Positions 91 to 24,617 of a stretch of DNA of 64,000 nt are shown piece by piece. The first letter of the stretch is position 1, and each line of letters opens with the position of its first letter. Both the position numbers and the translations under genes were made by a program. Location of the stretch: NCBI GenBank assembly GCA_963751275.1, contig CAVVTZ010000007.1, forward strand, positions 512,001 through 576,000, written 5' to 3'. The notes under the pieces were generated by a model. It did not search any database. It worked only from the letters and a program-made list of their open reading frames with translations, and had not been told where the DNA came from. The stretch is from an uncultured Gemmatimonadaceae bacterium (lineage in GTDB: Bacteria > Gemmatimonadota > Gemmatimonadetes > Gemmatimonadales > Gemmatimonadaceae).

Positions 91-242
91 GTGGGAACTG
101 CCTTTGACAGGATTCACATGATGAACGTGATGACGACCTGACGTTGCTGGGAACCCCATGGCGCCTCGCGTCCTTCGAGCGCCCGCAGTCCCGCAGTTCA
201 CATCATGTCCGTCATGTTCATCATGTCAAATGCAGTTCCTAC
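91..242. repeat. Palindromic element copy 1 (degenerate, about 68-nt spacer)
   Basis: Arms 91-132 (gtgggaactgcctttgacaggattcacatgatgaacgtgatg) and 201-242 are imperfect reverse complements and carry the ACTGC(N)TTTGACAKGAT motif of copies 2-4. Confidence 0.8.
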
Positions 243-293
243 TCCCCACGAACCTACCACGGACACGATTCTCGCGACGGACACGAGGCTTCG

Positions 294-1271
294 CTAGAAC
301 ACCTTCACGTTGATGTATTTCTTCGGATTCGCCTTGATGTCGGCCGTCAGTGAATCCAGCCGCGCCAGCAACGCACGCAGATTATTGTAGACCCCCGGGT
401 CGTTCATCAGCAGGCCGATGGTGCCTTTGCCGCTGTCGGCCTTCGCGAGGAGCGCGTTCACGCGCACGCTGGACGAATCCAGATTGCGCGTGAGCGAGGC
501 GAGGTTCTTCGACGCGGCCGAGAGGCTGTGCATCGTCGAGTCCACCGTGGCGGAGTCGATCGCGTTGAGGCTGCGCCGCAGGGAGGCCAACGTGGCGGTG
601 AGCGCCTTGGACTGCGTGTTCGCCACGTCGTTGAGGTTGGTCACGAGCGTGTTCGTGGACGCGATCGTCTTGCGCAGCTCGGCGATGCCGCCGTTCGTGA
701 CGAATTCGATCTTCACGGTGCGCGCGACATCGTTCAGCGACCCCGTGATGGTGTCCATCTTGAAGAGGATGTCGTCGATCGACGGCGCGCCGTGTCCTGC
801 GGGGATGGTGTCGTTCGCCGCCATGAACGCGCCGGGCCGGCACACCGGACCCTGGTCGCCGGCGGGTGCCGCGGCCGGCGGAGCCGGCGCGGCGCCGCGC
901 GCCGGCTCGGTGGCTCCCACCGGCGGCTGGTAGCGCCGGCACGGCTTGATCGCCACCGACTTGTCGCCGAAGATCCCTTCCGAGATCACGGTCACGGTGC
1001 TCCCCTCGGGGACCTTCCGGCCGCGGTCGATCGCCATCTTCACATCGAGATACCCCTCGGGATCGAGGTCCACGTTCTGCACGTATCCGATCTGCACACC
1101 GGCGAGATAGACGGGCTGCCCGACTTTCAGCTGCTGCCCCCAGTCGAAGCGCGCGAACATCGGATACGACTTGGTCCAGCCGCGCCGCGCGAGATAGAGC
1201 GTGCCGACGATCCCCACAACCACCGCGATCGTGACGAAGATGCCGACGATGACTTCGTCCTTACGTTTCAT
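294..1271 (-). CDS. mlaD: MlaD/MCE-domain protein
   Basis: N-terminal TM, MCE motif (LKVGQPVYLAGVQIGYV...GIFGDKSVAI), helical C-terminus ending IKANPKKYINVKVF. ATG overlaps the mlaE stop (ATGA). Confidence 0.88.
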   Translation of the reverse strand: MKRKDEVIVGIFVTIAVVVGIVGTLYLARRGWTKSYPMFARFDWGQQLKVGQPVYLAGVQIGYVQNVDLDPEGYLDVKMAIDRGRKVPEGSTVTVISEGIFGDKSVAIKPCRRYQPPVGATEPARGAAPAPPAAAPAGDQGPVCRPGAFMAANDTIPAGHGAPSIDDILFKMDTITGSLNDVARTVKIEFVTNGGIAELRKTIASTNTLVTNLNDVANTQSKALTATLASLRRSLNAIDSATVDSTMHSLSAASKNLASLTRNLDSSSVRVNALLAKADSGKGTIGLLMNDPGVYNNLRALLARLDSLTADIKANPKKYINVKVF

Positions 1272-2113
1272 GGCTTCAGGAGGGGCGCGAGATAGAGAGC
1301 GGTGAGCGCGTCGAGCAGGAGGATGATCACGGACGAGATGACGACGGTGCGGGCCGTGGACTTGCCCACGCCCTCGGCGCCGGCCTCGGCGGTGTAGCCC
1401 TCGTACGATCCGATGAGCGAGATCGCGCCGCCGAACAGCACCGCCTTGATGATCGCATAGTATACCTGGAACGGGATGAACGTGAGGTGCAGCCCGGTCG
1501 TGAAATCGTGCATCGTGACCTGGGTGAACGCGATGACCATCGCACCGCCCGCGGCGATGCCGGTCCCGATCGCCAGGATCGTGACGAGGGGCACCATCGT
1601 GATGCCGGCGATGAAACGCGGCACCACGAGATACGCCACCGGATCGTACGCGAGCGTCTCGAGCGCATCGATCTGCTCGGTCACGCGCATCGTGCCGATC
1701 TCCGCGGTCATGCGCGCGCCCACGCGGCCGGCGAGCACGAGCGCGGTGATCAGCGGGCCCAGCTCGAGCACGATCGACTGGCGCACGATCCAGCCCACCG
1801 CCGAGAGTTGCGCGCCGGGGAAGAGCTGGTACACCGTCTGGTAGCCGGTGACGGCGCCGATGAACGCGGCCACGGTGCCGGCGAGCGGCATCGAGTCCAC
1901 ACCCACGTTCTTCATCTGCTTCACGGTGAGCGGCAGCCAGGTGCGCGGCTCCGTGAATAGCCCGCGCAGCATCTCCACCGCGAAGAGCACGCGGCTGCCG
2001 ATCTGCCCGAACAGCAGCGCCGCCCAATGCGACATCTGCCGGAAGAAGACGATCGCCGCGCGCTGGGGCACGGGGAACGTGTGCGTCGGGCGCCGCGTGG
2101 CCGCGTCGGTCAC
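1268..2113 (-). CDS. mlaE: MlaE-family ABC permease
   Basis: ELGPLITALVLAGRVGARMTAEIGTMRVTEQIDALETL motif and GAEGVGKST. GTG start overlaps the lptG stop. Confidence 0.92.
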   Translation of the reverse strand: MTDAATRRPTHTFPVPQRAAIVFFRQMSHWAALLFGQIGSRVLFAVEMLRGLFTEPRTWLPLTVKQMKNVGVDSMPLAGTVAAFIGAVTGYQTVYQLFPGAQLSAVGWIVRQSIVLELGPLITALVLAGRVGARMTAEIGTMRVTEQIDALETLAYDPVAYLVVPRFIAGITMVPLVTILAIGTGIAAGGAMVIAFTQVTMHDFTTGLHLTFIPFQVYYAIIKAVLFGGAISLIGSYEGYTAEAGAEGVGKSTARTVVISSVIILLLDALTALYLAPLLKP

Positions 2114-3204
2114 GTGCGCACCTTGCTGAGCAGTACCGCGCCCACGATGCCGAAGAGCAGGCTCGGGAGCCATGCGGCGAGATACGGCGGGATCACGCCC
2201 CCCTGGCCCACGGCCTTCATGATCTGGATCAGGATCAGGAAGATGATCGTGGTCGCGAGGCTGATGCCGATCCCCATCGCGAAGCCGCCGCGCTGCGTGC
2301 TCGTCGCGAGCGGCGCGCCGAAGAGCGCGATGATGAGGCACGTCACCGGCAGCGCGAGCTTGAGCGAGAGCTCCACCTTCAGCTCGTTCACATTCGCACC
2401 GGAGCGCTCGCCGGAAATGATGTAACGGCGCAGTTCGCCGAAGCGCATGTCGTCGGGGCTGCGCGGGAGCGCCGTCAGCTCCACCGGCGCCTCCACGAAC
2501 TTCGCGTCACGGAGGCTGTCGAACGCGAACGCGAGATCGCGCGACGAGTCCGGCACGATGTGCATCGTGCCGCCCAGGAGCGTCCAGCGCTTCGCGGTGG
2601 AGTCCCACACCGCGGTGCGGGCGGCGATCAGGATGGTCGGATAGTCGATGCTCACGCCCTTCCGTTCGATCTCCAGCATGTCGATCTGGTGCTGCTCGAT
2701 CGTGAGGTTCCCGATCTTGTAGACGCGCCCCTCGGTGGCGGCGTACGCGAAGTTGAAGCGGTTCTGCCCGGGACGGTACTTGTGCTCCTCGAGGATCTCG
2801 TCGCGCCGCGCGTTGGTCACCGGCACCAGCTCGCCCAGCCCGAAGGCGAGCGCCATCACGCCCACCGCCGCCACGAAGATCGGCGCCACCATGCGGTGGA
2901 AGCTGATCCCGTTCGCCTTCGCCGCCGAGATCTCCCAATGGCGCGTGAACCCCCCGATGGAGAAGACGGTGCCGAAGAGCACCGCCACCGGGAGCACGAG
3001 GAACATCGAGTCGGGGATCCAATAGATGTAGCTGAGCGCGATCTGCTTGAGCGTCAGATGGCGGTTCAGGTACTTCTCCATGTGGTCCACGAGATCGATG
3101 ATGATCACGAGGAGCGGGAATCCCAGCGCGAGGCGAATGAAGATCTTCCAGAACTCGGCCATGACGTACCGGTCGAGCGGGCCAATGCGCGAGAGGAGCT
3201 TCAC
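2110..3204 (-). CDS. lptG: LptF/LptG-family LPS export permease (LptG-like)
   Basis: LDRYV N-terminus, EISAAKANGISFHR coupling helix, LAAWLPSLLFG C-terminus. GTG start overlaps the lptF stop. Confidence 0.85.
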   Translation of the reverse strand: MKLLSRIGPLDRYVMAEFWKIFIRLALGFPLLVIIIDLVDHMEKYLNRHLTLKQIALSYIYWIPDSMFLVLPVAVLFGTVFSIGGFTRHWEISAAKANGISFHRMVAPIFVAAVGVMALAFGLGELVPVTNARRDEILEEHKYRPGQNRFNFAYAATEGRVYKIGNLTIEQHQIDMLEIERKGVSIDYPTILIAARTAVWDSTAKRWTLLGGTMHIVPDSSRDLAFAFDSLRDAKFVEAPVELTALPRSPDDMRFGELRRYIISGERSGANVNELKVELSLKLALPVTCLIIALFGAPLATSTQRGGFAMGIGISLATTIIFLILIQIMKAVGQGGVIPPYLAAWLPSLLFGIVGAVLLSKVRT

Positions 3205-4967
3205 GTCGTGGGGCCCACGGCGGGCCGTGCGCCGAGTCGCCGCGCGGCGATCCAGTTCTTCGCGGTCTCGAGCAGCTCGCTGAAGTCGCCGCCGCGCGCG
3301 GTGGATCCGGAGCGCTGCACCTTGTACATGAAGTACACCCCGGCCGCCGTGAAGATGACGTTCGCCATCCACATCCCCCAGAACGGCGTGAGCTTCAGGC
3401 GGTTCGCCGTGGCCTCGCCGGCGACGAGGCCAATGTAGTATATGGCGAAGACGACGATGCTGATCCCGAGCACCATCCCGATCCCGCCGCGCGGGAAACG
3501 CAGCCCCACTGGCGCGCCGAAGAGCACGAACACCGCGCAGGCCGCCGCGAGCGCGAACTTCTTCTGGATCTCCACGGCGTAGCGGCTGGCGGTGGTCCGC
3601 GAATCGCTCACGCGCGCCTTCGCGATCTGGAGCCGCGCGAGCGTCTGCACGAACGACTGCGCGCCGGCGGTGCCAGTGGCCGCCGGCCCCTGCGGATCGA
3701 GCACCACGAGCGGCGCATTGCCGGCAGCGGGGCGCGGAGGCATCGGGCGCTGCGCCGGCACCACCGGCCGGCCGAAGGGCGCCAATGCCGGACCGCCCGC
3801 CGAGGGCGGGACGTGTGGCGACGCTCCCAGCATCGCACGGGGCCCGACGGGTGACCTGGTCACCGGCACGGGCCTCCGGACGGCCGGCGTCGCACTCACG
3901 ACGGCCGGCGGCGTCGATGCGGGGGGCGGCAGGGCCGGTGGCACCGGCGGCGGCGGTGGCACGGGCTCCGATGCTTCGCTCGTGTCGGGCGCGGGCGAGA
4001 TCCGCTTCACGAGACGGCAGTACAGCGATCCCAGCGTCCGCAGTTCCGTGCGCGGCGGCGTCGGCTCCATCCGCGGATGCTCGCCGGTCGCGGCGAAGTG
4101 CACCGCCATGAGCATCGTCCCCGCGACCTCGGAGCGCGCCACCGCCTCGTCGTGGCGCGCCTTCTGGTACATCGAATCCATCTCGCACACCGACATCTCG
4201 CGCTCGGACTTGTACGTGTCCTTCGACGTCTCCTCGAACTTGTTGCCCACATTGCGCACGCGCACGAGGTCGGTCTTGAAGTACAGGCGCTCCAGCTCGC
4301 CCATGTTGAGCTGCGGGATCTGCTGCATGTAGCCGTCGTGCAGCGTCAGCACGAGGTCGCGCTGGTCGGGCGTGAGTCCCATCGAGCCGCTGTCGGCGTA
4401 GATCGTCTTCCGGCGCGTGGGGTCATCGAAGTTGAAGATCGTGACCTCGGTCATCGCGTTCGACGCTTCGTCCAGCCGCCCCGCCCGCAGGAAGAGGCGC
4501 CCCGGCATCACCTCGTTGATCACCTGCGCGCGCAGCGCGAACGTCGGCTTCTTGCGCGCGATGTCCGTCTGCAGCGAGCGCAGCCGGTGGTTCGCGCGCG
4601 GGAGCACCTGGTCGTTGAACAGCAGGTTCGCGAGGGCGAGGATGATCCCCGCCACGAGCACCGGCTGCACGAAGCGGATCATCGACACGCCGCTCGCGCG
4701 CATCGCGGTCACCTCGTTCTCCGCCGAGAGCCGGCTGAACGCGTACAGCACGGCGACGAGCACCGCCATCGGCAGCGTCATCGCCACGATGAACGGCAGC
4801 GTGAGCAGGAAGAACTCGCCGATCACTCCCCACGACAGTCCTTTCCCCACCAGGTTGCCGAACTGCTTGGCCACCTGGTTGAGCAGCAGGAGCGTCGTGA
4901 GCGCGGACAGCGCGAACACGAGCGGCCCGAGGTGCTCTTTGAGGACGTAACGGGTGAGGATGCGCAT
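3201..4967 (-). CDS. lptF: LptF/LptG-family permease (LptF-like) with long Pro/Ala-rich insertion
   Basis: MRILTRYVLKE, RLSAENEVTAMRASGVS, EIQKKFALAAAC, WMANVIF motifs. Confidence 0.87.
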   Translation of the reverse strand: MRILTRYVLKEHLGPLVFALSALTTLLLLNQVAKQFGNLVGKGLSWGVIGEFFLLTLPFIVAMTLPMAVLVAVLYAFSRLSAENEVTAMRASGVSMIRFVQPVLVAGIILALANLLFNDQVLPRANHRLRSLQTDIARKKPTFALRAQVINEVMPGRLFLRAGRLDEASNAMTEVTIFNFDDPTRRKTIYADSGSMGLTPDQRDLVLTLHDGYMQQIPQLNMGELERLYFKTDLVRVRNVGNKFEETSKDTYKSEREMSVCEMDSMYQKARHDEAVARSEVAGTMLMAVHFAATGEHPRMEPTPPRTELRTLGSLYCRLVKRISPAPDTSEASEPVPPPPPVPPALPPPASTPPAVVSATPAVRRPVPVTRSPVGPRAMLGASPHVPPSAGGPALAPFGRPVVPAQRPMPPRPAAGNAPLVVLDPQGPAATGTAGAQSFVQTLARLQIAKARVSDSRTTASRYAVEIQKKFALAAACAVFVLFGAPVGLRFPRGGIGMVLGISIVVFAIYYIGLVAGEATANRLKLTPFWGMWMANVIFTAAGVYFMYKVQRSGSTARGGDFSELLETAKNWIAARRLGARPAVGPTT

Positions 4968-5115
4968 GGACGTTGCGGAATCTATGGCTTGCCGAGCCAG
5001 GGAGCTAATCAAAGGGGCGTGAGGCGTGAGCCGTGCGTCGTGAATTGCATAACAAATAATGAACGGCGCCTGCTGAACGATTACATTCCCTCGAACCTCC
5101 ACGGAGTTCCAATCG

Positions 5116-6009
5116 GTGCGGCGTTACGCGATCCTCCTCTTGAGTCTGGCCTTGGCGTGCAGGAACGACGCCCCCCGCACCCCGTTCAACGGCGCGGCCG
5201 CGCTCGGCTACGTGAAGACCCAGCTCGACTTCGGCCCGCGCATTCCCGGCTCGCCCGGGCACAAGCAGACCGGCGACTGGATCGTCGAACGCATGCGCCC
5301 GCTCGCCGACACGGTGATCGAACAGCGCTGGACCCACGTCACGGTGAAGGGCGACACGCTCCCCCTGCGCAACATTCTCGCACGCTTCCGCCCGCATGAA
5401 TCGCAGCGCGTGCTCTTCATCACGCACTGGGACACGCGCCCCGTCTCCGACCAGGCGGCCGACCCCGCGCAGCGCACGCTCCCGATGCCCGGCGCGAACG
5501 ACGGCGCCTCCGGCGTCGCGATGTTCATCGCGCTCGCCGAGGCCCTCAAGAAGACGCCCCCCGATGTCGGCGTCGACCTGCTCTTCGTGGACGGCGAGGA
5601 CTACGGCTCCTTCGAGGACGGCAAGGACGTGCTCCTCGGCTCGAAGTACTTCGCCAAGCACCTCCCCGACTCGGGCTACGCGCCGCTCTACGGCGTGCTC
5701 TGGGACATGATCGGCAAGAAGAACACGCGCTTCCCTGAGGAGGCGTTCTCGGTGCAGCGCGCGCCCGAGGTGGTCGCGCTCGTGTGGAAGCGCGCCGCCG
5801 ACCTCGGCTACAAGGGCACCTTCGTGCCCGTTGGCGGCGGCGCCGTCACCGACGACCACCTGCCGCTCCAGGAGGCCGGCCTGCACGTGATCGATGTGCT
5901 CGACATGGACTACCCGGAGCACCACACGCCGCAGGACACCTTCGACAAGGTGTCGCAGCGAAGTCTGCAGATCTCAGGCGACGTCGCCTACTCCCTGGTG
6001 CACGAGTAG
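5116..6009 (+). CDS. M28-family peptidase / glutaminyl-cyclase-like lipoprotein
   Basis: Lipobox LALAC. Zinc-ligand motifs HWDTRP, GANDGASG, DGEDYG, DMIG, TDDH, HHT. Confidence 0.85.
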   Translation: MRRYAILLLSLALACRNDAPRTPFNGAAALGYVKTQLDFGPRIPGSPGHKQTGDWIVERMRPLADTVIEQRWTHVTVKGDTLPLRNILARFRPHESQRVLFITHWDTRPVSDQAADPAQRTLPMPGANDGASGVAMFIALAEALKKTPPDVGVDLLFVDGEDYGSFEDGKDVLLGSKYFAKHLPDSGYAPLYGVLWDMIGKKNTRFPEEAFSVQRAPEVVALVWKRAADLGYKGTFVPVGGGAVTDDHLPLQEAGLHVIDVLDMDYPEHHTPQDTFDKVSQRSLQISGDVAYSLVHE

Positions 6010-6078
6010 CGCGACGGTTCAATGCGGCGTGTGATGTTCCGGTGATGGTCCGCGGCGCGGCGCGTGTCATGTTCGCCC

Positions 6079-6729
6079 ATGCCGACCCCCACCGAGAAAC
6101 GCGCCCTCACCTTCTTCGCCGGAGTCATCCTCCTTGGCGCCGCCGCGCGGGTGCTCGGCGCCTCCGGCAACGCTCCGCCGCCTGACTCCGCGTCGCGGCT
6201 GGAGCTCCACCGCCAGATCGAAGCCGTGGACAGTGCGCGGAAGAGCGGGGGCGGCAAGCGAAACCGCCGCCGGCGCGCCGGCGCCGACACCGCCGGTCCG
6301 CGCCCCGTGTCCGGCGGGAGCGTCTGGACCGCGGAGAGCACGCCGCCGCGGGTCTACTACGCGCGGGTGCGCCCGCGGCGCGGCGCCGGCCGTCCGGCGT
6401 CGGACAGCCTCGGCGCCGGTCTTGCCCCGGCCGATCCCATTCCGCCCGTCCGAGTGGACATGGACGTCGCATCGGCCGCCGAGATCGAGGGGCTGCCGCG
6501 CATCGGACCCACCCTCGCCCAGCGGATCGTCGCCGATCGCGCGGCGAACGGGCCCTTCGGCACACTCGAGGAACTCGGCCGGGTGAAGGGGATCGGTCCG
6601 GCCATCGCGCGTACCATAGCGCCGTACGTGACCTTCACCCTCACACCGCGTCCATCCAACGAGAGCGAAGGGGCCTCCGGCGCAGCCGGCGGCCGCGGTC
6701 GGCGCTTGCGCAAGCCGCGCTCTCCATGA
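6079..6729 (+). CDS. comEA: ComEA-like helix-hairpin-helix DNA-binding protein
   Basis: N-terminal TM and C-terminal HhH pair (LPRIGPTLAQRIV...VKGIGPAIA). Confidence 0.75.
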   Translation: MPTPTEKRALTFFAGVILLGAAARVLGASGNAPPPDSASRLELHRQIEAVDSARKSGGGKRNRRRRAGADTAGPRPVSGGSVWTAESTPPRVYYARVRPRRGAGRPASDSLGAGLAPADPIPPVRVDMDVASAAEIEGLPRIGPTLAQRIVADRAANGPFGTLEELGRVKGIGPAIARTIAPYVTFTLTPRPSNESEGASGAAGGRGRRLRKPRSP

Positions 6730-6808
6730 CAGAATATCGGCCTGCACGCAGCCCGGTCCTTGGCCGGGGGGCGACCAGCGACCCGCCGTTCCACTCTTCC
6801 GAGCACCA

Positions 6809-8652
<1,844 letters not shown>

Positions 8653-8840
8653 CGACCACCGGGCTGGTGCGCGGTACCCGGCAATGTCCGTGCCCGGGCC
8701 GGCGGACGAATCGATTCCGACGCGGACGGGCGACGTAGGCGTCGCTCCTACCAGGCGCCCTCGATTGTCGTGCCGTGATCCCGCGCCCGTCCCGAATACC
8801 GGTCTAACGCCGTGCACGGAGCTCCAACTGATCTCGCCTC

Positions 8841-10024
8841 ATGACTGCTCCAACTACTCCCGCGCCCACCGCAGCTCCGGCGCCAATCTCCGGCCAGCTG
8901 CTCGAGGAAATGATCGAGCGGGACGCCTCCGACCTGCACATCACGGCCGGCGAGCGCCCCAAGCTGCGCGTCGATGGCGACATCACCAATTCGACCAACG
9001 AGCAGGTGCTCACGCCCAAGGACACGCTGCAGCTCGCGTACTCGGTCCTCACCGAGAACCAGAAGAAGCGCTTCGAGATCGAGGACGAGCTCGACTTCTC
9101 GTTCGGCATCCAGAACCTGGCGCGCTTCCGCGGCAACTGCTTCAAGCAGCGCGGCTGCGTGTCGCTGGTGATCCGGCAGATCCCGTTCAACGATCAAGAC
9201 CTTCGAGCGAGCTGGGGCTCTCCCCGGCGGTGGCGAAGCTGGCCGAGAAGCCGCGCGGCCTGGTGCTGGTGACCGGTCCCACCGGCTCGGGCAAGTCGCA
9301 CGACGCTGGCCGCGATGATCGACAAGATCAACCGCGAGCGCAAGGGGCACATCATCACGGTGGAGGACCCGATCGAGTTCATCCACCGCCACCAGAGCTG
9401 CATCGTCAACCAGCGCGAGGTCGGCACCGACACGAAGTGCTTCGCCAGCGCGCTCAAGTACGCGCTGCGCGAGGACCCCGACGTGATGCTGATCGGCGAA
9501 ATGCGCGACCTGGAGACGATCTCAGGCCGCGCTGACGATCGCGGAGACCGGCCACCTCGCCTTCGCGACGCTGCACACGAACTCGGCGGCCGAGGCGATC
9601 AACCGCATGATCGACGTCTTCCCGGCGCACCAGCAGTCGCAGGTGCGGCCGCAGCTCGCGTTCGTGCTCGAGGGGATCGTCACGCAGACGCTGCTGCCGC
9701 GACGCCAAGGGGCGCGGCCGCGTGATGGCGGCCGAGATCCTCGTCGTCACGCCGGCGATCCGCGCGCTGATCCGCGACGACAAGGTCCACCAGATCTATT
9801 CCTCGATGCAGTCGGGGAAGAAGTACGGCATGCAGACGCTGAACGACGCGCTGTACCAGCTGTACATGGCGCGCGAGGTCGTGCGGGAGGAATGCCTGCG
9901 CGTGTCGAGCGACCCGAACGAGTTCCTCCGCATGATCGGTGAAGGCCCGATGGATGAGAGCACGGACCCGCTGCAGGCGCCCAGCCGTGAATCACGGATG
10001 GCCGGCGCCGGCGGCAAGCGCTAA
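8841..10024 (+). CDS. pilT: Retraction ATPase PilT (frameshifted in this assembly)
   Basis: [53 protein letters not shown] across frames. Confidence 0.88.
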
Positions 10025-10046
10025 CGCCCGGGACTGAGGAAATAGA

Positions 10047-11242: not shown

Positions 11243-11247
11243 CCACT

Positions 11248-11270
11248 CGGGAGTCGGGAGTCGGGAATCG
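11248..11270. repeat. Short tandem heptamer repeat (CGGGAGT/CGGGAAT x3)
   Basis: tcgggagtcgggagtcgggaatcg immediately after the pilC stop. Confidence 0.65.
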
Positions 11271-11302
11271 AGAGCGCGCGGGGCGAGAGCCTCGCGCGCT
11301 CT
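11271..11302 (+). terminator. Hairpin after pilC (terminator or RNA-stabilising stem)
   Basis: agagcgcgcggggc-GAGA-gcctcgcgcgctct, a 14-bp stem with a GNRA loop. U-tail is weak. Confidence 0.5.
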
Positions 11303-11508
11303 TCGCATCTGGCACCATGACCTGCGACTGGGCATCATTGGGGGATGCACCGCAACGTTCGGTCGACGTCCGCGTATATCCGGAAGGATTCCCGGAGCCG
11401 CGCCACGAGACGTGGGTGGCAGTACAACCCAATGTCTCGGAGCGACACGTCCCGTTGGACCCTTCTGCGACCGACCACCTACGCCGTGCCGCCACGGCGC
11501 CCGCAGCG

Positions 11509-16700: not shown

Positions 16701-16908
16701 CCGATCCTGATGACGACGCTGTGCACGCTGTTCGGGCTGCTGCCGCTCGCGCTCGGCCTGGGCGCCGGGCAGCGAGCTGCAGCGGCCGCTCGCGCTGGCG
16801 GTGATCGGCGGGCTCGCGCTCTCGACGCCGATCACGTTGTTCGTCGTGCCCACCCTGCTCGTGGCGATCCGCGGGCGGGATTTCACTCTCAGCAGGAGCT
16901 CCAGATGA
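13790..16908 (+). CDS. RND efflux permease (CusA/CzcA/AcrB family; heavily frameshifted)
   Basis: IGLVIDDAVVITENI, FLPEMDEGAFVLDY, GLIVKNGIILLD, RLRPILMTTL, PLALAVIGGL in successive frames. Stop overlaps the yncE-like ATG. Confidence 0.85.
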
Positions 16909-17915
16909 AGACTTTCCTGGCCCTGGCGGCCGTTGCGGCGATCGCTCTCGCGTCGCCGAACTACCACGTGGTGCGCAAGCTGGCCGTGGGCGGCGACGGC
17001 GGATGGGATTATCTCACCGTCGACACCGTGAACCACAAGCTGTACGTATCGCGCGGCACGCACGTGATGATCATCGACACCGACAACGAGAAGGTCGTCG
17101 GCGACATCCCCGATACGATGGGCGTGCACGGCATCGCGATCGCGAACGACCTGAACCGCGGCTACACGAGCAACGGACGTGACTCGAGCGTCACGATCTT
17201 CGACCTCAAGACGTTCTCGGTGATCGCGAACGTGAAGGTCGGGCAGCGCAACCCCGACGCGATCCTGTACGAGCCCACCACGAAGCGCGTGTTCACCTTC
17301 AACGGCGGCAGCTCGAACGCCACCGCGCTCGACGCGGTGACGGGCGCCGTGATCGGCACCGTGCCGCTCACGGGGAAGCCCGAGTTCGCGCAGCATGATG
17401 GCAAGGGCACCGTGTTCGTGAACATCGAGAACAAGGATGGCGCGGTCACGGCCATCAACGCGAAGACGCTCGTCGCGCAGGCACCCTGGATGATGGCCGG
17501 CTGCGAGGAGCCGAGCGGCCTCGCGATCGACCGCGGCCACGGCGTGCTCTTCTCGACGTGCGGCAACAAGGTGATGGCGATCACGGACGACAAGACCGGG
17601 AAGCAGATCGCGACCGTCCCGATCGGCCAGGGCGTGGATGCCGGCGCGTTCGATGCGGGCACGCAGCTCGCGTTCGCGTCGAACGGTGAGGGCACGATCA
17701 CGGTCGTGAAGTCCACGGGCCCGGGCGCCTACGCCGTGGCCGCCACGGTGCCGACGCAGGCCCGCGCCCGCACCATGGCGCTCGATGAACGCACGCACCG
17801 GATCTACACGGTGACGGCTGATTTCGGGGCGGCGCCGGCGCCCACGGCGGATAACCCGCGCCCGCGGCCGCCAATAATGCCCGGGTCCTTCGTCGTGCTC
17901 GTGCTGGAGCCGTAG
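16905..17915 (+). CDS. YncE-family beta-propeller protein (secreted)
   Basis: Signal peptide, GGDGGWDYLTVD, GVHGIAIA, GCEEPSGLAID, ARTMALD. SD AGGAG. Confidence 0.82.
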   Translation: MKTFLALAAVAAIALASPNYHVVRKLAVGGDGGWDYLTVDTVNHKLYVSRGTHVMIIDTDNEKVVGDIPDTMGVHGIAIANDLNRGYTSNGRDSSVTIFDLKTFSVIANVKVGQRNPDAILYEPTTKRVFTFNGGSSNATALDAVTGAVIGTVPLTGKPEFAQHDGKGTVFVNIENKDGAVTAINAKTLVAQAPWMMAGCEEPSGLAIDRGHGVLFSTCGNKVMAITDDKTGKQIATVPIGQGVDAGAFDAGTQLAFASNGEGTITVVKSTGPGAYAVAATVPTQARARTMALDERTHRIYTVTADFGAAPAPTADNPRPRPPIMPGSFVVLVLEP

Positions 17916-17935
17916 ATCGCGGGTGACCGTGGTTC

Positions 17936-18077
17936 AGCAACGGCAACAAACTGCTTTGACAGGATTACAGGATTACGGGACCACAACGGGATGAACGGCC
18001 TGAGAATTCTCAGGCCGTTCATCCCGTTGTGGTCCCGTAATCCTGTAATCCTGTCAAAGCAGTTTGTCGCCGTTGCT
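17936..18077. repeat. Palindromic element copy 2 (142 bp, no loop, 1 mismatch)
   Basis: Centre TGAGAA|TTCTCA at 18006/18007. The only mismatch is A17945/C18068. Confidence 0.95.
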
Positions 18078-18085
18078 CTACCCGC

Positions 18086-21065
18086 TCATTGCAACGTGAA
18101 TACCGCCCGCGCGCCATCCATCTTGATCGATCCCTCCGTCAGAAAGACTCTCTCGGATTCGATCTTGTTCGCCGGCACGCTCAGCAGGTAGTCCAGGCAT
18201 GCCTTGGCGCGCGCGGTCGCGAGGAGAATGCAGGTCGTCGGGCGAGATCACGATCGTCGCCAAGAGCCGCCGCTCCATCTCGGCGGCGGGGTAGGGCGGC
18301 GCGGCGCTCTTCGACTTCTTCGCGGCGGCCACTGCGCTGTCGGCCGGGAACGCGGCGTCGAACGCGGCGGTGAGCATCTTCGCGCGCTCGTCCACGGTGA
18401 GCATCACGCTGTCCACCGGCGGGGTGTTCGGGTCCTTCGCCTTGAGCGCGGTCCACTTCTTGAGCCGGAACTGCGCCTCCAGCTTCGCCGCCTTGAGCGC
18501 CGCCGGGTCGGCCACGGTGTCCACCGCGCCCGCGATCTCCAGTTTCAGCGCCGGCCGCTCATAGAGCGATTTCGCGAGCACGTCCATCTTCTTCACTTCC
18601 GACGCCGACAGCGTGGAACTTCCCTCGGCGAACTCGGCGTAACTCAAGTCCACGTTCGCGCCCGCGCCGAACATCCCGCCCAGCAGCTTGAAGGGCGACG
18701 TGATCAGCTTGGTCAGCACGTTCAGGATCGCCCGTCCGATCACGCGGCCGAAATGGAAATCCGGATCGTCCAGATTCCCCTCGATCGGCACGTCGAACAC
18801 GATCTGCCCGTTGCGGTCGCGCATGATCGCGAAGCCGAGCTTCACCGGCATCTTCGTCGCCTCGGGACTGTTCGTTTGGTCGCCGAAGGTGAACTCGTCG
18901 AGGGTAAGCTTGTTCTCGGACTTGAGCTGGCGGCCCACCACCCGGTACTTCATCTCGACCTTCATCTTGCCCTTCGAGATCAGATAGCCGAGGTATTTCC
19001 CGGAATACGGGCCCACGGGGATCAGCTCCATCCCCTGCAGGTCCACCGTGAGGTCGCTGCCCTCCTTGTCGCTGAGCGGATTGAAGCTCCCGGTGATCTT
19101 CACGGGCGCCACGTTGTCGACGGACGCGGTCAGGTCGAGCGTGCCGGTGCCGAGCGAGTCGGAGGAGAGCCTGCCGGTCACGGCATTGATCTTGGTGACG
19201 CTGAAGGCCACCGCTGGCTGCAGCGACTTGTCGTCGAGCGCGATCGAGCCGTTCGTGATCTTGATGCGGCCGATGGAGGTCTTGGCGGCGGAACTGACTT
19301 GACTGCGTGAGCCGGCGCCGGACGCAGGGTGTGCGGCGACAGTCTTCGGTGGCGGCGGCGCCGAGTCGTGCGCCACGGTCGAATCCGCTCTCGCGCTGTC
19401 GCCGCCGGAGCGCGGGAAGATCGTGCTCATCGACGACCGGCCGTCCTCGGCGATCCGGAAGACGACCGACGGATCGTCGAGACGGATCTCCTTCATCGTG
19501 AGCTTGTTCGCCTTGTAGGCGTAGTCCACGCCGGTGAAACGGAGCGCCGAGAAGCTCAGGAAGGGCAGGCGGTCCTTGCCATCCACCGTCGCGAAGCGTT
19601 CGATGCGAAGATCGCCCTTGTACGTGAAATCCGGATGGAGCGAGTCGGCGATGTTGTACGTGATGCGCGCGTCGGTGGCGAGCCGGCCGTCGCTGATCAC
19701 GAGGTTCATCGCCGGCTTGCCGTAGGGGTCGAACGGCCGCAGCGACACCGCGCGCGCGGACACCGCGAGGTCGCCCGTGTGCTTCCAGATCGCGATGCTG
19801 CCGTCGGCCTTGAGAGCGCCGTTCGGCGCCCACGTCGCGGTCGCGTGCAACGGCGACACGCGCGCCGAGTCGTTCGCGATGCTGTCGAACGTCACCGAGG
19901 CGTTCGTGATCGCGATGACCGCGGGCTTCGCCGTGGAGGAGTCGATGAAATTCACGGCGTAACTGTCCGCCGCGACGTGCGCGATGAGCCAGCGCCAGGG
20001 CGCGGGCGTTTTCGCGGGCGCTGACGCCTTCGCGAGCGCGGCGCCGGAGTCGCTGCGCATCACCATCAATCGCATCACGTTGATCGTGCTGTCCTTGTTC
20101 CGCAGCGCATTCAGCACACCGGCGCGCGACGTGATCTCGCCCACGTACGCCTTCCGCGCCAGCGCATCCACGCTCACGCGTCCCACCACCAGTTCGCGCA
20201 CGCGCACCGCGGTGTCGGTGCGCCCGCGCTCCACGATCGCGAGGTCACCCACGCGCAGCTCGCCGCCGCTCATCTGCATCTTGCGCGCCTGTGGCGTGAA
20301 GTCGACGTCGTATTTCGCCTTGATCCCTGCGATGCCGCGCACGACATTGAATGCGACGGTCCGCTCGTAGAAGGGCCCGTACTTGGGCAGCTTGAGGCTG
20401 TCGAGCGAGAACTCGCCGGCGGAGCGCAGCGGGTCCGTCCCGAGAGTGCCCGCCCACGCGAACGACTCGCCGCTCTCGGTGCGCCCCGAGAACGAGTAGC
20501 GGCTGTTGTTGTCGCGGCGCGTCGCGAACGCCGCCAGGTCGATGCGCCAGGGGCCGATCGTCGTGGCGAAGGGCCGCCCGGTGGCGCTGTCCACCACGTC
20601 GAGCCGGGCGTCCACGATGTGCAGGGCGTCGATCGACACCACCGGCGCCGGCCCCGAGCTGGGCGCCGCCTTCATCGAGTCCACGATGTCCGTCACGTTC
20701 AGCGAGCCGTCGCGCCGGATCACCATGCGCCCATACGGCCGCACCAGCCGGACCTCCTTGAAATCGGCTTCGCGGCGCAGCACTGAGATCAGCTCGAAAT
20801 TGATGTAGAACTCATCCCACGCGAACAGCATCGCGCCGTCCTTGTCCGCCACGCGCAGGCTGTCCACCGTCACCGAAAGCGAGAACGGATTCACTCTCAC
20901 CGGCCCCACCGCGGCTGGGCGGTGCAGCGTGGCCGACACCTGGCGCGCCAGCTTCCCGCGCACGATCCCCGGGGCGATGAAGAAACCGGCGATGGCGTAC
21001 ACTGCCACGAGCGCGACGATGATGCCGATGATCCACGTGAGCCGCGGCGAGAGATTGATTCTCAT
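18086..21065 (-). CDS. DUF748-domain (AsmA-like) envelope protein
   Basis: N-terminal TM, VRVNPFSLSV, repeated beta-rich segments, IVFDVPIEGNLDDPDF, KLITSPFKLLG, LYERPALKLEI. Probable frameshift near 18220; the as-given ORF ends at 18078. Confidence 0.8.
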
Positions 21066-21072
21066 CAGACAG

Positions 21073-21078
21073 AGTCTA
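21073..21078 (-). promoter_or_regulatory. -10-like hexamer TAGACT 7 nt before the DUF748 ATG (leaderless candidate)
   Basis: TAGACT-ctgtctg-ATG with no SD. Confidence 0.5.
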
Positions 21079-21102
21079 TTCGGAGCACCCGCCCGCGGCC
21101 AG

Positions 21103-21257
21103 CGGGAGCAACGGCAACACACTGCATTTGACAGGATGACAGGATGAACAGGATAACTGCTGATGACCGCTTGAGGCGGCCCCGCCTCAAGCGGTCATCA
21201 GCAGTTATCCTGTTCATCCTGTCATCCTGTCAAAGCAGTGTGTTGCCGTTGCTCCCG
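21103..21257. repeat. Palindromic element copy 3 (155 bp, 2-nt spacer, 1-nt bulge)
   Basis: cgggagcaacggcaacacactgcatttgacaggat...ttgaggcgg-cc-ccgcctcaa...atcctgtcaaagcagtgtgttgccgttgctcccg. Confidence 0.95.
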
Positions 21258-21284
21258 AGCCAGCCATGGGCCTCAGCAATGGAG

Positions 21285-21290
21285 TAACTT
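21285..21290 (+). promoter_or_regulatory. -10-like hexamer TAACTT 7 nt before the queC ATG (leaderless candidate)
   Basis: TAACTT-tccggac-ATG. Confidence 0.5.
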
Positions 21291-21297
21291 TCCGGAC

Positions 21298-21991
21298 ATG
21301 CCCCCCAAGCGCGCTGTCGTTCTCCTCTCCGGCGGACTCGATTCCGCCACGACGCTCGCCATCGCACGCGCCGAAGGCTATGAGACCGCACGCGCTCTCC
21401 TTCCGCTACGGCCAGCGGCACGCCGGCGAGCTCGAGTTCGCGGCGCGCCTCGCGAAGGTGCTTGGCGCCAAGCGGCACGTCGTCACCGAGATCGACCTGC
21501 GCGCCTTCGGCGGCTCCGCGCTCACCGCGGAGATCGCGGTGCCGAAGCACGAGCGCGCCGAGGAGATCGGCGGCGGGATCCCGGTCACCTACGTTCCAGC
21601 CCGAAACACGATCTTCCTGAGCTTCGCACTCGCCTTCGCGGAGGTGTCGGGCGCCGAGGACATCTTCATTGGCGTGAACGCGCTGGATTACTCGGGCTAT
21701 CCCGATTGCCGGCCGGAGTACCTCGCGAGCTTCGAGCAGATGGCGAACCTCGCAACGCGCGCCGGCGTGGAGGGCGGCCACCTGCGCATCCACGCGCCGC
21801 TGCTCGATCTCACGAAATCGGAGATCATCAAGCGCGGGCTCGCGCTGGGCGTGGACTATTCGCTCACACGGAGCTGCTACGATCCGCGCGCCGATGGCGC
21901 GAGCTGCGGCCGATGCGACGCATGCCTGCTGCGGCTGCGCGGCTTCGAGCAGGCGGGCGCGAAGGACCCGATCCCGTACGCGAAGCCGTGA
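21298..21991 (+). CDS. queC: 7-cyano-7-deazaguanine synthase QueC (one frameshift near 21388)
   Basis: [11 protein letters not shown], then in the next frame [40 protein letters not shown]. Confidence 0.93.
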
Positions 21992-22623
21992 CGTACACGG
22001 TGAAGGAGATCTACTGCACGCTGCAGGGCGAAGGCGCACAGACGGGCCACGCCGCCGTCTTCCTGCGCTTCGCGGGCTGCAATCTGTGGACCGGACGCGA
22101 AGCCGACCGTGCGGGCGCGGTGTGCACCTTCTGCGACACCGACTTCGTGGGCACGGACGGTCCGAACGGCGGGAAGTTCGAAAGCGGCGAGGCGCTCGCG
22201 GCGGCGGTGGAGGCGCAGTGGCCCGCGTCGTCGCCGGCAAACCGGCTGGTGGTGTGCACCGGCGGCGAGCCCACGCTGCAGCTCGACGCGCCGGCGGTGG
22301 ACGCGCTGCACGCGCGCGGGTTCCGAGTGGCGATCGAGACCAACGGCACGCAGCCGCTGAAGGCGCCGGTGGATTGGGTGTGCGTGAGCCCCAAGGCGCA
22401 GGCGGCGCTCGTGCTGCGCGCGGGCGACGAGCTCAAGTTGGTCTATCCGCAGGAGACCGCGCCGCCGGATCGCTTCGAGAAACTGGACTTCGCGCATTTC
22501 TTCCTGCAGCCCATGGATGGGCCCGACCGCGAGCGGAACACGGCGCTCGCGATCCAGTATTGCCTGCAGCACCCGCGCTGGCGGCTGAGTGTCCAGACGC
22601 ATAAACTGCTCGGTCTTCCCTAG
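21988..22623 (+). CDS. queE: 7-carboxy-7-deazaguanine synthase QueE (short radical SAM, CX14CX2C type)
   Basis: TLQGEG, RFAGC-X14-CTFCDT, TGGEP, IETNGT, VSPK, LSVQTHK. Confidence 0.93.
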
Positions 22624-22633
22624 CCGACCGCCG

Positions 22634-22993
22634 ATGGAGATATTCAGAGAGTTCAGTTTCGAGGCGGCCCACCGGCTGCCGAACGTCCCCGACGGCCACA
22701 AGTGCGCGCGGCTCCACGGGCACTCGTTCTACGTGATCGTGCACGTGACGGGCCCGCTCGACGCGCGGCTCGGCTGGGTCATGGATTTCGCGGAAGTGAA
22801 AGCGGCCGCCGCGCCGCTGATCGATATGCTCGATCATCGTTACTTGAACGAGATCGACGGGCTCGACAATCCCACCAGCGAGCAGGTCGCGCGCTGGATC
22901 TGGGAGCGCCTCGCGCCGAAGCTGGCGGGCCTTTCCGCCATCACCGTGAAGGAGACGTGCACCTCGGGATGCACCTATCGCGGCGAACCATGA
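22634..22993 (+). CDS. queD: 6-carboxy-5,6,7,8-tetrahydropterin synthase QueD
   Basis: [33 protein letters not shown]. Confidence 0.93.
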
Positions 22994-23016
22994 TCCACCA
23001 GACGGGGAGAGCAGAC

Positions 23017-23613
23017 ATGCGGATCGTTCCTGTACGAACAGCGGGCGTGCTGGCGCGGGCGTTCTCGGTGGCGGCGGTGGCCGCGGTGATGGGCTGCAGT
23101 TCGCTCACCGTGAACACCGACTGGAACACCACCATCGACTTCACGCAGTACAAGACCTGGAACTTCAAGATCGACACCCTGCCGTACTCGACGTTCACGC
23201 AGGACCGGATCCGCAACGCGATCGCGGGCCAGATGATGAAGCACGGCGTGACCCGCGATACGCTCAACCCGCAGCTGCTCGTCATCTACCGGATTAATCT
23301 CAGCAGCCAGACGCAGGTGCAGACGGTGGGCTACGGCGGCTACGGCTACGGCCCGGCATGGGGCGGCTACGGCGGCTACTGGGGCGGTTACGGCGGGGGC
23401 GTGTCGACCACCACGGTGTCGCAGATCCCCCTGGGCGCGCTCACGCTCGCGATGGTGGACACGAAGCTCAACCAGCTCGTGTGGCGCGGGGAGGCGAACG
23501 CGCAGCTCAACGACAACCAGTCGAACGCGCAGCTCGTGCAGGACGCGATGACGCAGTTGTTCGCGCAATTCCCGCCGAAAGCGGGCGTGATGCCGAGCAG
23601 CACCCAGTTCTAG
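23017..23613 (+). CDS. DUF4136-like lipoprotein (Gly/Tyr-rich loop)
   Basis: Lipobox VMGC, IDFTQYKTW, GYGG-rich segment, LVWRG, FPP. Alternative ATG at 22990. Confidence 0.75.
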   Translation: MRIVPVRTAGVLARAFSVAAVAAVMGCSSLTVNTDWNTTIDFTQYKTWNFKIDTLPYSTFTQDRIRNAIAGQMMKHGVTRDTLNPQLLVIYRINLSSQTQVQTVGYGGYGYGPAWGGYGGYWGGYGGGVSTTTVSQIPLGALTLAMVDTKLNQLVWRGEANAQLNDNQSNAQLVQDAMTQLFAQFPPKAGVMPSSTQF

Positions 23614-23635
23614 CGCCGGATCGGATGTGAACGGA

Positions 23636-23670
23636 GCGCGGCGGACTGGCCACACGGCGGTCCGCCGCGC
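23636..23670 (+). terminator. Intergenic hairpin between the two DUF4136 genes
   Basis: gcgcggcggac...gtccgccgcgc 11-bp stem followed by acgttt. Confidence 0.4.
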
Positions 23671-23774
23671 ACGTTTCATCGGCAACGGCGGGAACTAATC
23701 CCCCCGTCGGGCCGTATCTTCTTCAGCCTGCCGCACGACGCGGCCGCGCTCACCCCGTACAAGGATCGCCGATC

Positions 23775-24395
23775 GTGAATCTCACCACCCGCCGCACCCT
23801 CACCGCGCTGGCCACCGTGGCCACGTTCGCCGCGCTCGGCGCCTGCGCGAACTCGGTGGATGTGAACACCGACTGGAATCCGAACATCGATTTCAGCCAG
23901 TACAAGACGTTCGCTTTCCTCCCCGACACGGTGGACAAGGCGCTGCCGCCATTCGCGAATGACCGGCTGAAGGCGGCGATCGATTCGGCGCTCAAGAAGC
24001 GCGGCCTCGTCGAGGTGACGTCGGATCCGCAGCTCTACGCCACCTTCCGTGCGAACACGCACAAGGAGACGCAGTACACCACCGTGAGCACGGGCTACGG
24101 CTACGGCGCGGGCTGGGGCGGCTGGGGCGGCTACGGCTACGGCGGCTACTACGGCGGCATGGGCTACGGCGGCGTCGGCGTCTCGACCACCACGCAGCAG
24201 CAGATCCCCATGGGCAACCTCATCGTCGTGCTCGTGGACACGAAGCTCAACCAGATGGTGTGGCGCGGCAACGCGAAGGCCGAGATCGCGGAGGACATGC
24301 AGGGACGCGCGCAGCAGCTCGAGAGCGCGATGAACCAGATGTTCTACGCCTTCCCGCCCAAGAAGGGGCAGCAGCCGGGGGCCTCGGAGTATTAG
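23775..24395 (+). CDS. DUF4136-like lipoprotein (paralogue)
   Basis: Lipobox LGAC, IDFSQYKTFAF, GYG-rich loop, MVWRG, FPPK. Confidence 0.78.
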   Translation: MNLTTRRTLTALATVATFAALGACANSVDVNTDWNPNIDFSQYKTFAFLPDTVDKALPPFANDRLKAAIDSALKKRGLVEVTSDPQLYATFRANTHKETQYTTVSTGYGYGAGWGGWGGYGYGGYYGGMGYGGVGVSTTTQQQIPMGNLIVVLVDTKLNQMVWRGNAKAEIAEDMQGRAQQLESAMNQMFYAFPPKKGQQPGASEY

Positions 24396-24405
24396 CGTCG
24401 ACCTG

Positions 24406-24529
24406 AACTGCTTTTGACAGGATGAGCGGGATGAGAACAGCATAAGAGCGGATGAACGGCCTGATGATCATCAGGCCGTTCATCCGCTCTTATGCTGTTC
24501 TCATCCCGTTCATCCTGTCAAAAGCAGTT
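24406..24529. repeat. Palindromic element copy 4 (124 bp, no loop, 1 G:T mismatch)
   Basis: Centre CTGATGA|TCATCAG at 24467/24468. Arms aactgcttttgacaggat... / ...atcctgtcaaaagcagtt. Confidence 0.95.
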
Positions 24530-24544
24530 GTTCTCGGTAACAAA

Positions 24545-24575
24545 GGCGCCCCGCCAGGTCTCCGGGCGGGGCGTC
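24545..24575 (+). terminator. Small GC hairpin downstream of copy 4
   Basis: ggcgccccgcc-N9-ggcggggcgtc followed by cttcatt. Confidence 0.35.
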
Positions 24576-24617
24576 CTTCATTAGAGACGCCAGCGCGCCC
24601 CGGGTCGTCCTAGGAAC

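Follow-up and report, generated by a model that had tools for sequence, protein, structure and literature searches.

What are the four long palindromes that occupy intergenic gaps near the start of the window (the whole stretch of analysed DNA, 64,000 nucleotides from a Gemmatimonadaceae genome), and what brought them there? The first-pass annotation had taken them for a non-autonomous palindrome family, mobile or selfish, whose enzyme lies elsewhere, with GxxExxY genes as first candidate mobiliser.

Four palindromes and their genome-wide family

The four elements were confirmed in the sequence and are referred to as E1 to E4:

E1, 91..242, no strand assigned: gene-less inward doublet of type-1 arms (GACAGGAT..ACATGAT words), decayed
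E2, 17936..18077, no strand assigned: gene-less inward doublet of type-2 arms, near-perfect palindrome, loop absent
E3, 21103..21257, no strand assigned: gene-less inward doublet of type-2 arms, left head with one extra base
E4, 24406..24529, no strand assigned: gene-less inward doublet of type-2 arms, one mismatch

As had been claimed, the motif ACTGC(N)TTTGACAKGAT is present in eight of eight arms, and the elements occur in convergent, divergent and tandem gene contexts. All of them sit between protein genes, none in an rRNA gene. E1 has convergent genes on either side and adjoins a GC-rich hairpin (at about 26-55), which is retained in relatives. E2 lies between a beta-propeller gene (+) and a DUF748 gene (-), E3 between DUF748 (-) and queC (+), and E4 begins 11 nt past the stop of a DUF4136 gene, with another GC-rich hairpin kept by relatives downstream of it. 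The description as mirrored palindromes fits copies 2-4, which are near-perfect, with arms of 76 nt at 96% identity in E2, 62 nt at 98% in E4 and 53 nt at 100% in E3, the latter plus an outer stem shifted by one base. Copy 1, in contrast, is paired over its outer arms only, namely for 29 nt inward from the head pair with six mismatches, followed by a 68-nt unpaired core. Folding z-scores were -28.6 (E2), -26.5 (E3), -23.2 (E4) and -6.4 (E1). A scan of positions 1-26000 against Rfam yielded 18 matches at E<=1, all below the gathering score, those on the elements being generic miRNA hairpins; the elements match none of the families already described there. Neither an intrinsic terminator (GC-rich stem plus U-tract) nor a sigma-70 promoter was found at E2-E4 in a scan of 17000-25000.

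An arm comprises about 45-55 nt and starts with the head AACT(G/A)C(N)TTTGACAGGAT, which is followed by two to three further words of 8-10 nt. There are two arm subtypes, copy 1 belonging to type 1 and copies 2-4 to type 2; type-2 arms close with a second ACNRC-like pentamer. In the 3.1-Mb genome the strict motif was found 79 times, vs 0 times in a Markov control, and about 75 loci of these arms were counted, four of which are E1-E4. The tally amounts to 150 arms at 79 called loci, with 60 clean doublets (35 inward, 25 outward), 4 clusters and 15 single calls (two false, three part of cassettes, ten with a decayed partner). The repeat is extragenic, multi-copy and mostly arranged in inverted doublets. 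Near-perfect pairing was seen in 17 of 20 type-2 but only 5 of 15 type-1 inward doublets, and the partner arms of inward doublets change in step. The cores, which had been regarded as copy-specific, are sub-lineage-specific instead, with the E3 core recurring at C7:488038 and the E2/E4 core at C9:320082, although their variety is considerable (33 of 35 inward doublets differ in the first 35 nt). No target-site duplication became apparent across the 35 inward doublets (mean flanking repeat 2.9 nt vs 2.7 in cross-pairs). The 6-nt repeat flanking E3 was dismissed as such a duplication, as it is the sole one reaching 6 nt, which fits chance over 35 tests. No GTAG/CGTC tag at a fixed position was seen by eye in the 70 outer flanks listed.

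Assembly did not create these palindromes. Library or long-read artefacts can make perfect palindromes with 0-6-nt loops. Among the sequencing runs listed, there was no RNA run with the sequence and none that contained more than 0.09 of the words; four runs analysed further yielded contigs of relatives only. That the palindromes arose as fold-back artefacts of sequencing or assembly, or by chance, is nevertheless extremely improbable, given family-specific heads fixed at about 75 loci, the lack of strict matches in the Markov control and the recurrence of these elements in assemblies made separately. On metagenome contig L208, which was assembled separately, an orthologous copy of another family member is a full palindrome; three inner positions of its arm differ, and every one of these changes is matched in the opposite arm. 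As this orthologous copy exists in a separate assembly, the artefact explanation is refuted. Long-read error (strand bias) was also rejected as the source of the extra head base, since a separate assembly shows the same extra base.

GxxExxY cassettes and their matching arms

When genes enclosed by arm pairs were listed, GxxExxY was returned twice, which agrees with the first-pass suggestion that similar 9-periodic ACAGGAT arms flank GxxExxY genes. Both full cassettes, i.e., inverted arm pairs around such a gene, are located on the same contig as the elements, outside the window (G000 denotes this genome):

Type-1 cassette, G000 C7:943.2k: GxxExxY gene within inward type-1 arms
Type-2 cassette, G000 C7:952.0k: GxxExxY gene within inward type-2 arms

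The likely start codon of the cassette gene falls within the last words of the left arm, and of the three PF13366 genes in G000, two lie inside such inward arm pairs. Both cassette proteins exceed curated cut-offs (TIGR04256: 133-134 bits, cut-off 35), and the residues E39, D78, E88, K90, Q102 and Y106 are conserved in at least 90% of 90 sequences. The structure model (pLDDT 89) has Cas4, lambda-type exonucleases, Hjc and restriction enzymes as nearest folds (best Z 8.2). As modelled, the cassette protein has a PD-(D/E)XK fold with its catalytic residues intact; fold matches at a Z of about 8 indicate the superfamily, not the function. A sequence-level search of solved structures gave no match to the protein, and an atlas search returned GxxExxY clusters only. 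Evidence for a dimer was set aside: about 19 of the best 150 matches were long with two matched stretches, of which a motif check confirmed two. The GxxExxY family is large (16,009 cluster representatives at E<=0.001), and its function is given as unknown in PMC3424549. Our literature searches found neither a flanking repeat described for this family (TIGR04256, PF13366) nor a description of these arm-gene-arm repeats. Genes for RAYT/Y1 (PF01797), DUF559 or a reverse transcriptase were not found in the 83% complete G000 assembly.

With about 75 loci, two GxxExxY cassettes and no RAYT/Y1 found, the proposed non-autonomous palindrome family with an enzyme elsewhere is supported. On balance it appears probable that E1-E4 are copies without a gene from a dispersed repeat family, in whose full-length form the arms enclose a small GxxExxY gene, and that this nuclease binds the arms and drives their spread. 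The best reading is a non-autonomous, REPIN-like repeat for which a PD-(D/E)XK nuclease takes the place of an HUH transposase. The case for GxxExxY as first candidate mobiliser is strengthened by its enclosure in the same arms; binding, cutting and mobilisation by the nuclease are inferred. The GxxExxY protein would bind the word array and nick or cut there, and host repair would then copy arms into new intergenic sites, possibly favouring sites already bearing a hairpin. Intramolecular conversion or fold-back could keep the arms mirrored, and the cassettes would stay put at syntenic places and act in trans in the manner of RAYT genes.

Arm word and arm subtype follow nuclease clade and paralogue. 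Type-2 arms number 55 in G000 vs 4, 1 and 2 in the relatives G002, G004 and G005, and no type-2 gene is present among the PF13366 matches of these three genomes. A metagenome search conducted blind with the type-2 arm pattern gave six loci, one of which is a cassette whose protein shares 80% identity with the type-2 protein and 63% with the type-1 protein. Across phyla (Verrucomicrobiota, one Alcaligenaceae), 17 loci at 54-67% identity could be scored, and 14 of them have inward ACAGGAT words on both sides of the gene; at <49% identity this holds for only 1 of 48 loci. On a quick tree with few columns and many open forks, from which L174, L195 and L197-L200 were left out, the ACAGGAT-flank label needs 3 changes vs 14.5 in shuffles. 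Throughout the 401 genomes of the bacterial family, at least five word doublets were present in 13 of 21 with a match at the pre-set cut of E<=1e-29 vs 7 of 380 without; the cut at E<=1.5e-35 (12/13 arm-rich genomes) was picked after viewing the list. Of the five exceptions examined, G483 not being among them, four hold an ACAGGAT-flanked GxxExxY gene or fragment, and over all 401 genomes a GxxExxY gene or fragment stands next to such arms in 16 of the 20 arm-rich ones. As the genomes are related and incomplete, these association statistics overstate the link. Searching 400 other genomes of the phylum with the strict head pattern gave 0 matches, which was misleading, since the family turns up in 13 genera when a looser word pattern is used; the backwards control of the looser pattern reached at least five in 6 of 401 genomes and is not a clean zero. 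G004 (76% complete) contains 43 word doublets, although neither a cassette at its syntenic site nor any gene from the nuclease clade was found, G455 (73% complete) contains 23 with no flanked gene found, and the clade gene of G424 has no words within 250 nt. As each gene is accompanied by its own matching arm variant, it seems likely that the nuclease recognises and spreads the repeats.

Turnover of sites and rival explanations

The elements are not fixed in relatives, where the orthologous sites are empty or filled by other repeats. The E1 site is empty in G002, G004 and G005 (40-57 nt vs 237-238), as is the E4 site (43-44 nt vs 166). The gap orthologous to that of E2 contains unrelated palindrome families in these three genomes. 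At the E3 site they have a type-1 outward doublet and G003 has a different repeat family, while one relative contig (run X1) lacks the element. Of the 26 G000 sites with an orthologue in G005, 11 have no element there and 4 have one from another family; at the other 11 the family is shared, in 3 cases with opposite orientation. Inversion of one element was rejected as the source of such inward/outward differences and replacement is preferred, because the occupants differ in subtype. Gene-less copies are gained or lost between sister genomes, often where the relative has a different palindrome, and counted by eye, unrelated families were swapped in 18 of 46 doubly occupied G000/G005 gaps. The cassettes are syntenic in relatives.

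The arm-gene-arm layout is not confined to GxxExxY genes. It also surrounds six four-helix-bundle (PF05635) genes with six other arm families; to our knowledge, no nuclease activity is known for that protein family. An inward AAC(T/G)(G/A)C motif is present at 153 of 470 ends of other palindrome families (background 3.8%). Given the common layout and this common outer motif, one shared machine (host recombination or repair, or an enzyme missing from the assembly) may move all palindrome families. GxxExxY and four-helix-bundle genes would then be carried along; their products would bind their own words, to regulate themselves or to shield the hairpin, but would not cut for mobility. The swapping of unrelated families at the same sites and the arms of G004 and G455, where the cognate gene was not found, point in the same direction. 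This explanation nevertheless appears rather unlikely, as type-2 arms are seen in a burst only alongside the type-2 gene, the catalytic residues of GxxExxY are conserved and the search of G000 (83% complete) for a Y1 transposase, DUF559 or a reverse transcriptase came back empty.

A benefit to the host would be another explanation: the elements might be retained because, as RNA hairpins that can replace one another, they protect mRNA 3' ends or aid termination, or because they serve as scattered binding sites for a regulator, their turnover being drift among equivalent hairpins. Similar paired sites in Geobacter were taken as regulator-binding by Aklujkar et al. (PMC2700814). The RNA folds are extremely stable, and long palindromes are most frequent in convergent gaps (96/239, compared with 161/1033 tandem and 49/336 divergent ones). 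Occupancy of a site also persists through a change of family (24 of 51 vs 7 of 261 in a crude G005 count). Yet E1 and E4 are missing in three sister genomes that keep the adjoining GC-rich hairpins, E3 lies between divergent genes, and nothing terminator-like or promoter-like was found at E2-E4. As a role for the host would also leave the match between words and nuclease clade across phyla unexplained, it is considered improbable.

Spread by the nuclease remains the preferred reading, and a wider version of it can be proposed tentatively, with more doubt than confidence. The elements might represent a selfish class in which a PD-(D/E)XK nuclease of 130-150 residues knows its own three-word arm at the level of paralogues and sends gene-less palindromes into intergenic slots, often ousting rival families, so that more than ten hairpin families compete without transposase, recombinase or reverse transcriptase. 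Of the 1608 intergenic gaps, 306, about one fifth, are filled by long palindromes from families of this sort, which thus shape much of the non-coding genome.

Relation to known repeats

MITEs are short non-coding derivatives that share inverted ends with a gene-bearing parent IS and vary in presence between relatives. The elements resemble them in sharing ends with a longer gene-bearing form and in being present or absent between relatives, but differ in lacking a general target-site duplication and a transposase; their gene-bearing form is confined to one locus, and the whole element is a mirrored palindrome. Here the common ends are those of GxxExxY cassettes, which stay syntenic in relatives and whose nuclease is no more than a putative mobiliser. 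ORF-bearing intervening sequences of 23S rRNA, which are excised from the RNA, consist of a long stem with a small four-helix-bundle ORF in the loop. Their layout is shared by the six PF05635 genes with other arm families; unlike them, the elements described here occupy protein-gene spacers, and the ACAGGAT family carries GxxExxY instead of a four-helix bundle.

The elements also resemble REP/REPIN-RAYT systems (REPtrons; TIRtrons/TIRYT; PMC3116915, PMC3733652). Both have intergenic inverted doublets that form hairpins and are sometimes clustered in tandem, and in both the cognate nuclease gene is sedentary and lies between copies of its repeat; paralogues specific to different repeats can share a genome, and there are signs of lateral transfer between distant taxa. 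However, their cognate is an HUH Y1 transposase rather than a PD-(D/E)XK nuclease, their unit is a 20-40-bp palindrome rather than an array of tandem 8-10-nt words, and they have a GTAG/CGTC terminal tag where no fixed tag exists here; both inward (35) and outward (25) doublets are common in the present family. If the nuclease does spread the repeats, this would constitute a second, non-HUH route to REP-like DNA. For the large GxxExxY family of unknown function, this genome supplies a defined candidate DNA target, and it offers a built-in specificity control, with two paralogues, two arm variants and one burst only with its own paralogue.

In Geobacter metallireducens, the Class 1-3 'putative global regulator binding sites' are opposite-strand pairs of three to five tandem 7-9-nt repeats, dozens per genome and reported missing from a sister species (PMC2700814). 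The paired arrays and their numbers are alike, whereas the words differ and the passages on these sites read them as IHF/HU sites, with no link to a nuclease gene or to mobility. The reading favoured here, if true, may explain such paired tandem-repeat sites annotated as regulator-binding.

Anatomy and dispersal of the palindromic elements

The palindromic elements are real and dispersed, they are mobile at genus scale, and they are closely linked to a single clade of GxxExxY nucleases (PF13366/TIGR04256, a PD-(D/E)XK family). The four gene-less copies in the window lie where the first-pass annotation had placed them:

E1, 91-242; neighbour: MCE/MlaD operon
E2, 17936-18077; neighbours: beta-propeller gene and DUF748
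E3, 21103-21257; neighbours: DUF748 and queC
E4, 24406-24529; neighbours: DUF4136 and a phosphatidyltransferase-like gene

The motif ACTGC(N)TTTGACAKGAT, claimed for every arm, was found in 8/8. Mirrored cores, also claimed for all copies, could be recovered for E2-E4, which are near-complete inverted repeats (96-100%) and the three longest in the window (76 nt, 96%; 53 nt, 100%; 62 nt, 98%), with folding z-scores of -23 to -29; E1 pairs in its outer part alone (z-score -6.4). Elsewhere in the window, genes between 6000 and 17000 (type IV pilus ATPase-like and efflux, judged by repeats and Pfam matches) are split into short frames, which are probably long-read frameshifts of the assembly, and a short GGGAGTC-word repeat with a hairpin past a stop codon (11247-11300) belongs to another palindrome family.

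A search of the window's own genome (G000) yielded 79 strict motifs (0 in a Markov control) and, with a wider finder, 150 arms at 79 loci (control: 1 match per 1.5 Mb). These loci comprise 35 inward doublets (inverted arms facing each other), 25 outward doublets (facing apart), 4 clusters and 15 single calls, the latter being 2 false calls, 3 parts of gene cassettes and 10 arms with a decayed partner. Heads of inward doublets are 75-125 nt apart and their partner arms are 93.5% alike across 40 nt (n = 35); 21/35 are closest to their own partner, 6 are ties and 8 are not. Outward doublets have heads 22-35 nt apart and partners that are 79.5% alike, with some other arm being nearer in 20/25. Their head spacings fall into groups of 22-25 and 27-35 nt (31-33 in most cases) that differ by about one helical turn, and sister genomes contain, in addition, fused outward doublets whose heads are separated by 5-8 nt. 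Tandem arrays of 2-4 inward doublets, resembling BIME clusters, occur at C2:51723-52257, C6:36701-36946 and C14:58863-59072. At C7:875203-876548 and C7:898204-899214 outward doublets flank ordinary genes on both sides in a cassette-like manner, namely a ROK-like sugar kinase (by sequence) and a secreted protein; the sister genomes G004 and G005 lack the two doublets that surround the kinase.

Two arm subtypes could be distinguished in G000: 60 arms carry ACATGAT words (type 1) and 55 carry ACAGGAT or ACGGGAT words (type 2). An ACNRC-like terminal pentamer is carried by 54/59 type-2 arms vs 24/80 type-1 arms. As near-perfect inward doublets account for 17/20 in type 2 and only 5/15 in type 1, type 2 looks like the young subtype.

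Arm subtypes and nuclease genes

The first-pass annotation had pointed to similar arms flanking GxxExxY genes. Inward arms do bracket two of the three PF13366 genes in G000, C7:943262 with type-1 and C7:952096 with type-2 arms, and in both cassettes the left arm's final words contain the gene's likely start codon. The third gene belongs to another clade and is without such arms. An AlphaFold model of the nuclease (pLDDT 89) resembles Cas4, lambda-type exonucleases, Hjc and restriction enzymes (best fold match: Z 8.2, rmsd 2.8, 95 aligned), and E39, D78, E88, K90, Q102 and Y106 are conserved across 90 sequences (each in at least 90%); the predicted structure and these residues show an intact PD-(D/E)XK fold, not a function.

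G000 has 55 type-2 arms, against 4 in G002, 1 in G004 and 2 in G005, and the general arm pattern has 56, 27 and 40 matches in these three sister genomes, almost all of type 1. The type-1 cassette lies in the same gene neighbourhood in G002 (frameshifted) and G005 and was not found at the corresponding neighbourhood of G004; the type-2 gene was found in none of the three (completeness 63-89%). Neither arms nor such a gene were found in the fragmented genomes G001 and G003. A metagenome search with the type-2 arm pattern gave 6 loci, one of which is a cassette with matching flanks whose protein is 80% identical to the type-2 protein.

Among 43 loci drawn from genome contigs across phyla, the 18 closest (54-67% identity) are from Verrucomicrobiota plus one Alcaligenaceae. 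Inward ACAGGAT words stand on both sides of 14/17 scorable close loci, the other 3 having a related word, and flank 1/48 more distant loci. On a quick tree (16 labelled rows) the word label changes 3 times vs 14.5 when shuffled. At three loci in Bacteroidota and Poribacteria (L180, L184, L194), more distant GxxExxY genes are accompanied by similar words, CAGGAT preceded by a TCTGAAC/TCAGA head, which face outward at two of them.

Within the family, 20/401 genomes in 13 genera contain at least 5 word doublets, namely 13/21 with a nuclease match at E<=1e-29 vs 7/380 without, an association among kin rather than independent genomes in which nominal P values carry no weight. Five of these 7 were examined, and 4/5 contain an ACAGGAT-flanked gene or fragment, as do 16/20 arm-rich genomes overall (G483 left out of examination), a pattern which survives removal of the unpublished genome G427. 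The clade gene of G424 is without flanking words. Outside this genus it is often whole palindromes, or one arm only, that border the gene. A reversed control word occurs 5-33 times in G104, G105, G554, G643, G699 and G007, where it may represent another repeat family.

Turnover at orthologous sites

E1 and E4 are absent from G002, G004 and G005, where the adjoining GC-rich hairpins are kept. The gap of E2 holds unrelated palindromes in all three and that of E3 a type-1 outward doublet. A single contig of run X1 (depth 5.6) lacks E3, with 21066 joined to 21259 via 31 other letters.

The site comparison drew on parts of the genomes of G005 (1.08 Mb) and G004 (0.84 Mb). Of 26 G000 sites with a G005 orthologue, 11 are empty, 4 hold another family and 11 the same family, 3/11 in opposite orientation. 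For type-2 sites (n = 15) the outcome was one conserved type-2 element, a type-1 or mixed element at 6, another family at 3 and no element at 5. With all families pooled, a differently labelled palindrome was found in G005 at 24/51 palindrome-bearing G000 gaps vs 7/261 without, and in G004 at 31/44 vs 12/155, with crude family labels and a by-eye count of unrelated families at 18/46 doubly occupied gaps. Some of this replacement could be due to tolerant gaps being limited in number.

The C7:972399 element and its orthologous copy differ at 3 positions of the inner arm, all of them mirrored, a pattern compatible with conversion between the two arms but also with selection for pairing. Past gene index 820 on C7, orthologous hairpins of G000 and G005 share their central sequence and differ in both arms by the word GACTGAC vs GGCTGTC, which suggests concerted word replacement.

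Candidate mechanisms and other palindrome families

We lean slightly towards a reading in which the nuclease would bind its own word array and cut, after which host repair would copy and mirror the arms. A shared machine that moves the palindromes, with the genes as passengers, appears unlikely but deserves weight. Long palindromes of more than 10 families occupy 306/1608 G000 gaps (>=40 nt), and six four-helix-bundle (PF05635) genes, 2 of them above cut-off, likewise sit in inverted arms, each of a different family that also occurs gene-less:

C9:82568-83131, PF05635 gene
C9:147210-147726, PF05635 gene
C9:285195-285829, PF05635 gene
C9:570890-571642, PF05635 gene
C9:573418-574101, PF05635 gene
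C10:15346-16007, PF05635 gene

One of these families occupies the gap of E2 in G005. An outer motif is common to 153/470 palindrome ends (background 3.8%; read outward 22/470), and in G004 and G455 arms are present and no flanked gene was found. It is chiefly the PF05635 layout, the shared motif and these two genomes that speak against a GxxExxY-specific mobiliser. In the 83%-complete G000 assembly, searches for a Y1 transposase, DUF559 or reverse transcriptase found none. Hairpins or regulator sites kept by the host are a still less probable explanation; PMC2700814 describes paired tandem-repeat sites like these arms as regulator-binding. That the elements are an artefact is hardly credible.

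REPIN-RAYT systems, according to PMC3116915 and PMC3733652, work similarly, but the present family fails their defining tests. Judged on target sites, the family is not a MITE, no general target-site duplication having been found at the elements. PF13366 is listed as unknown in PMC3424549, and 10.1101/2021.01.26.428298 refers to GxxExxY a single time, on a different matter. No account of this linkage turned up in the searched literature (mostly outside subscription papers) on GxxExxY/PDDEXK_3, four-helix bundles with repeats, Gemmatimonad REP and tandem-repeat nucleases. Our own tests add the coupling of two paralogues to two subtypes, the association seen across 401 genomes and counts of replacement at individual sites.

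At C12:51958-52166 of G000, and at locus L003, the third GxxExxY gene adjoins a CACGCGGAT palindrome whose centre is a TTGTTGTTAACAACAA core; that core is found again in a CCGGAT family, both at other sites and among relatives.
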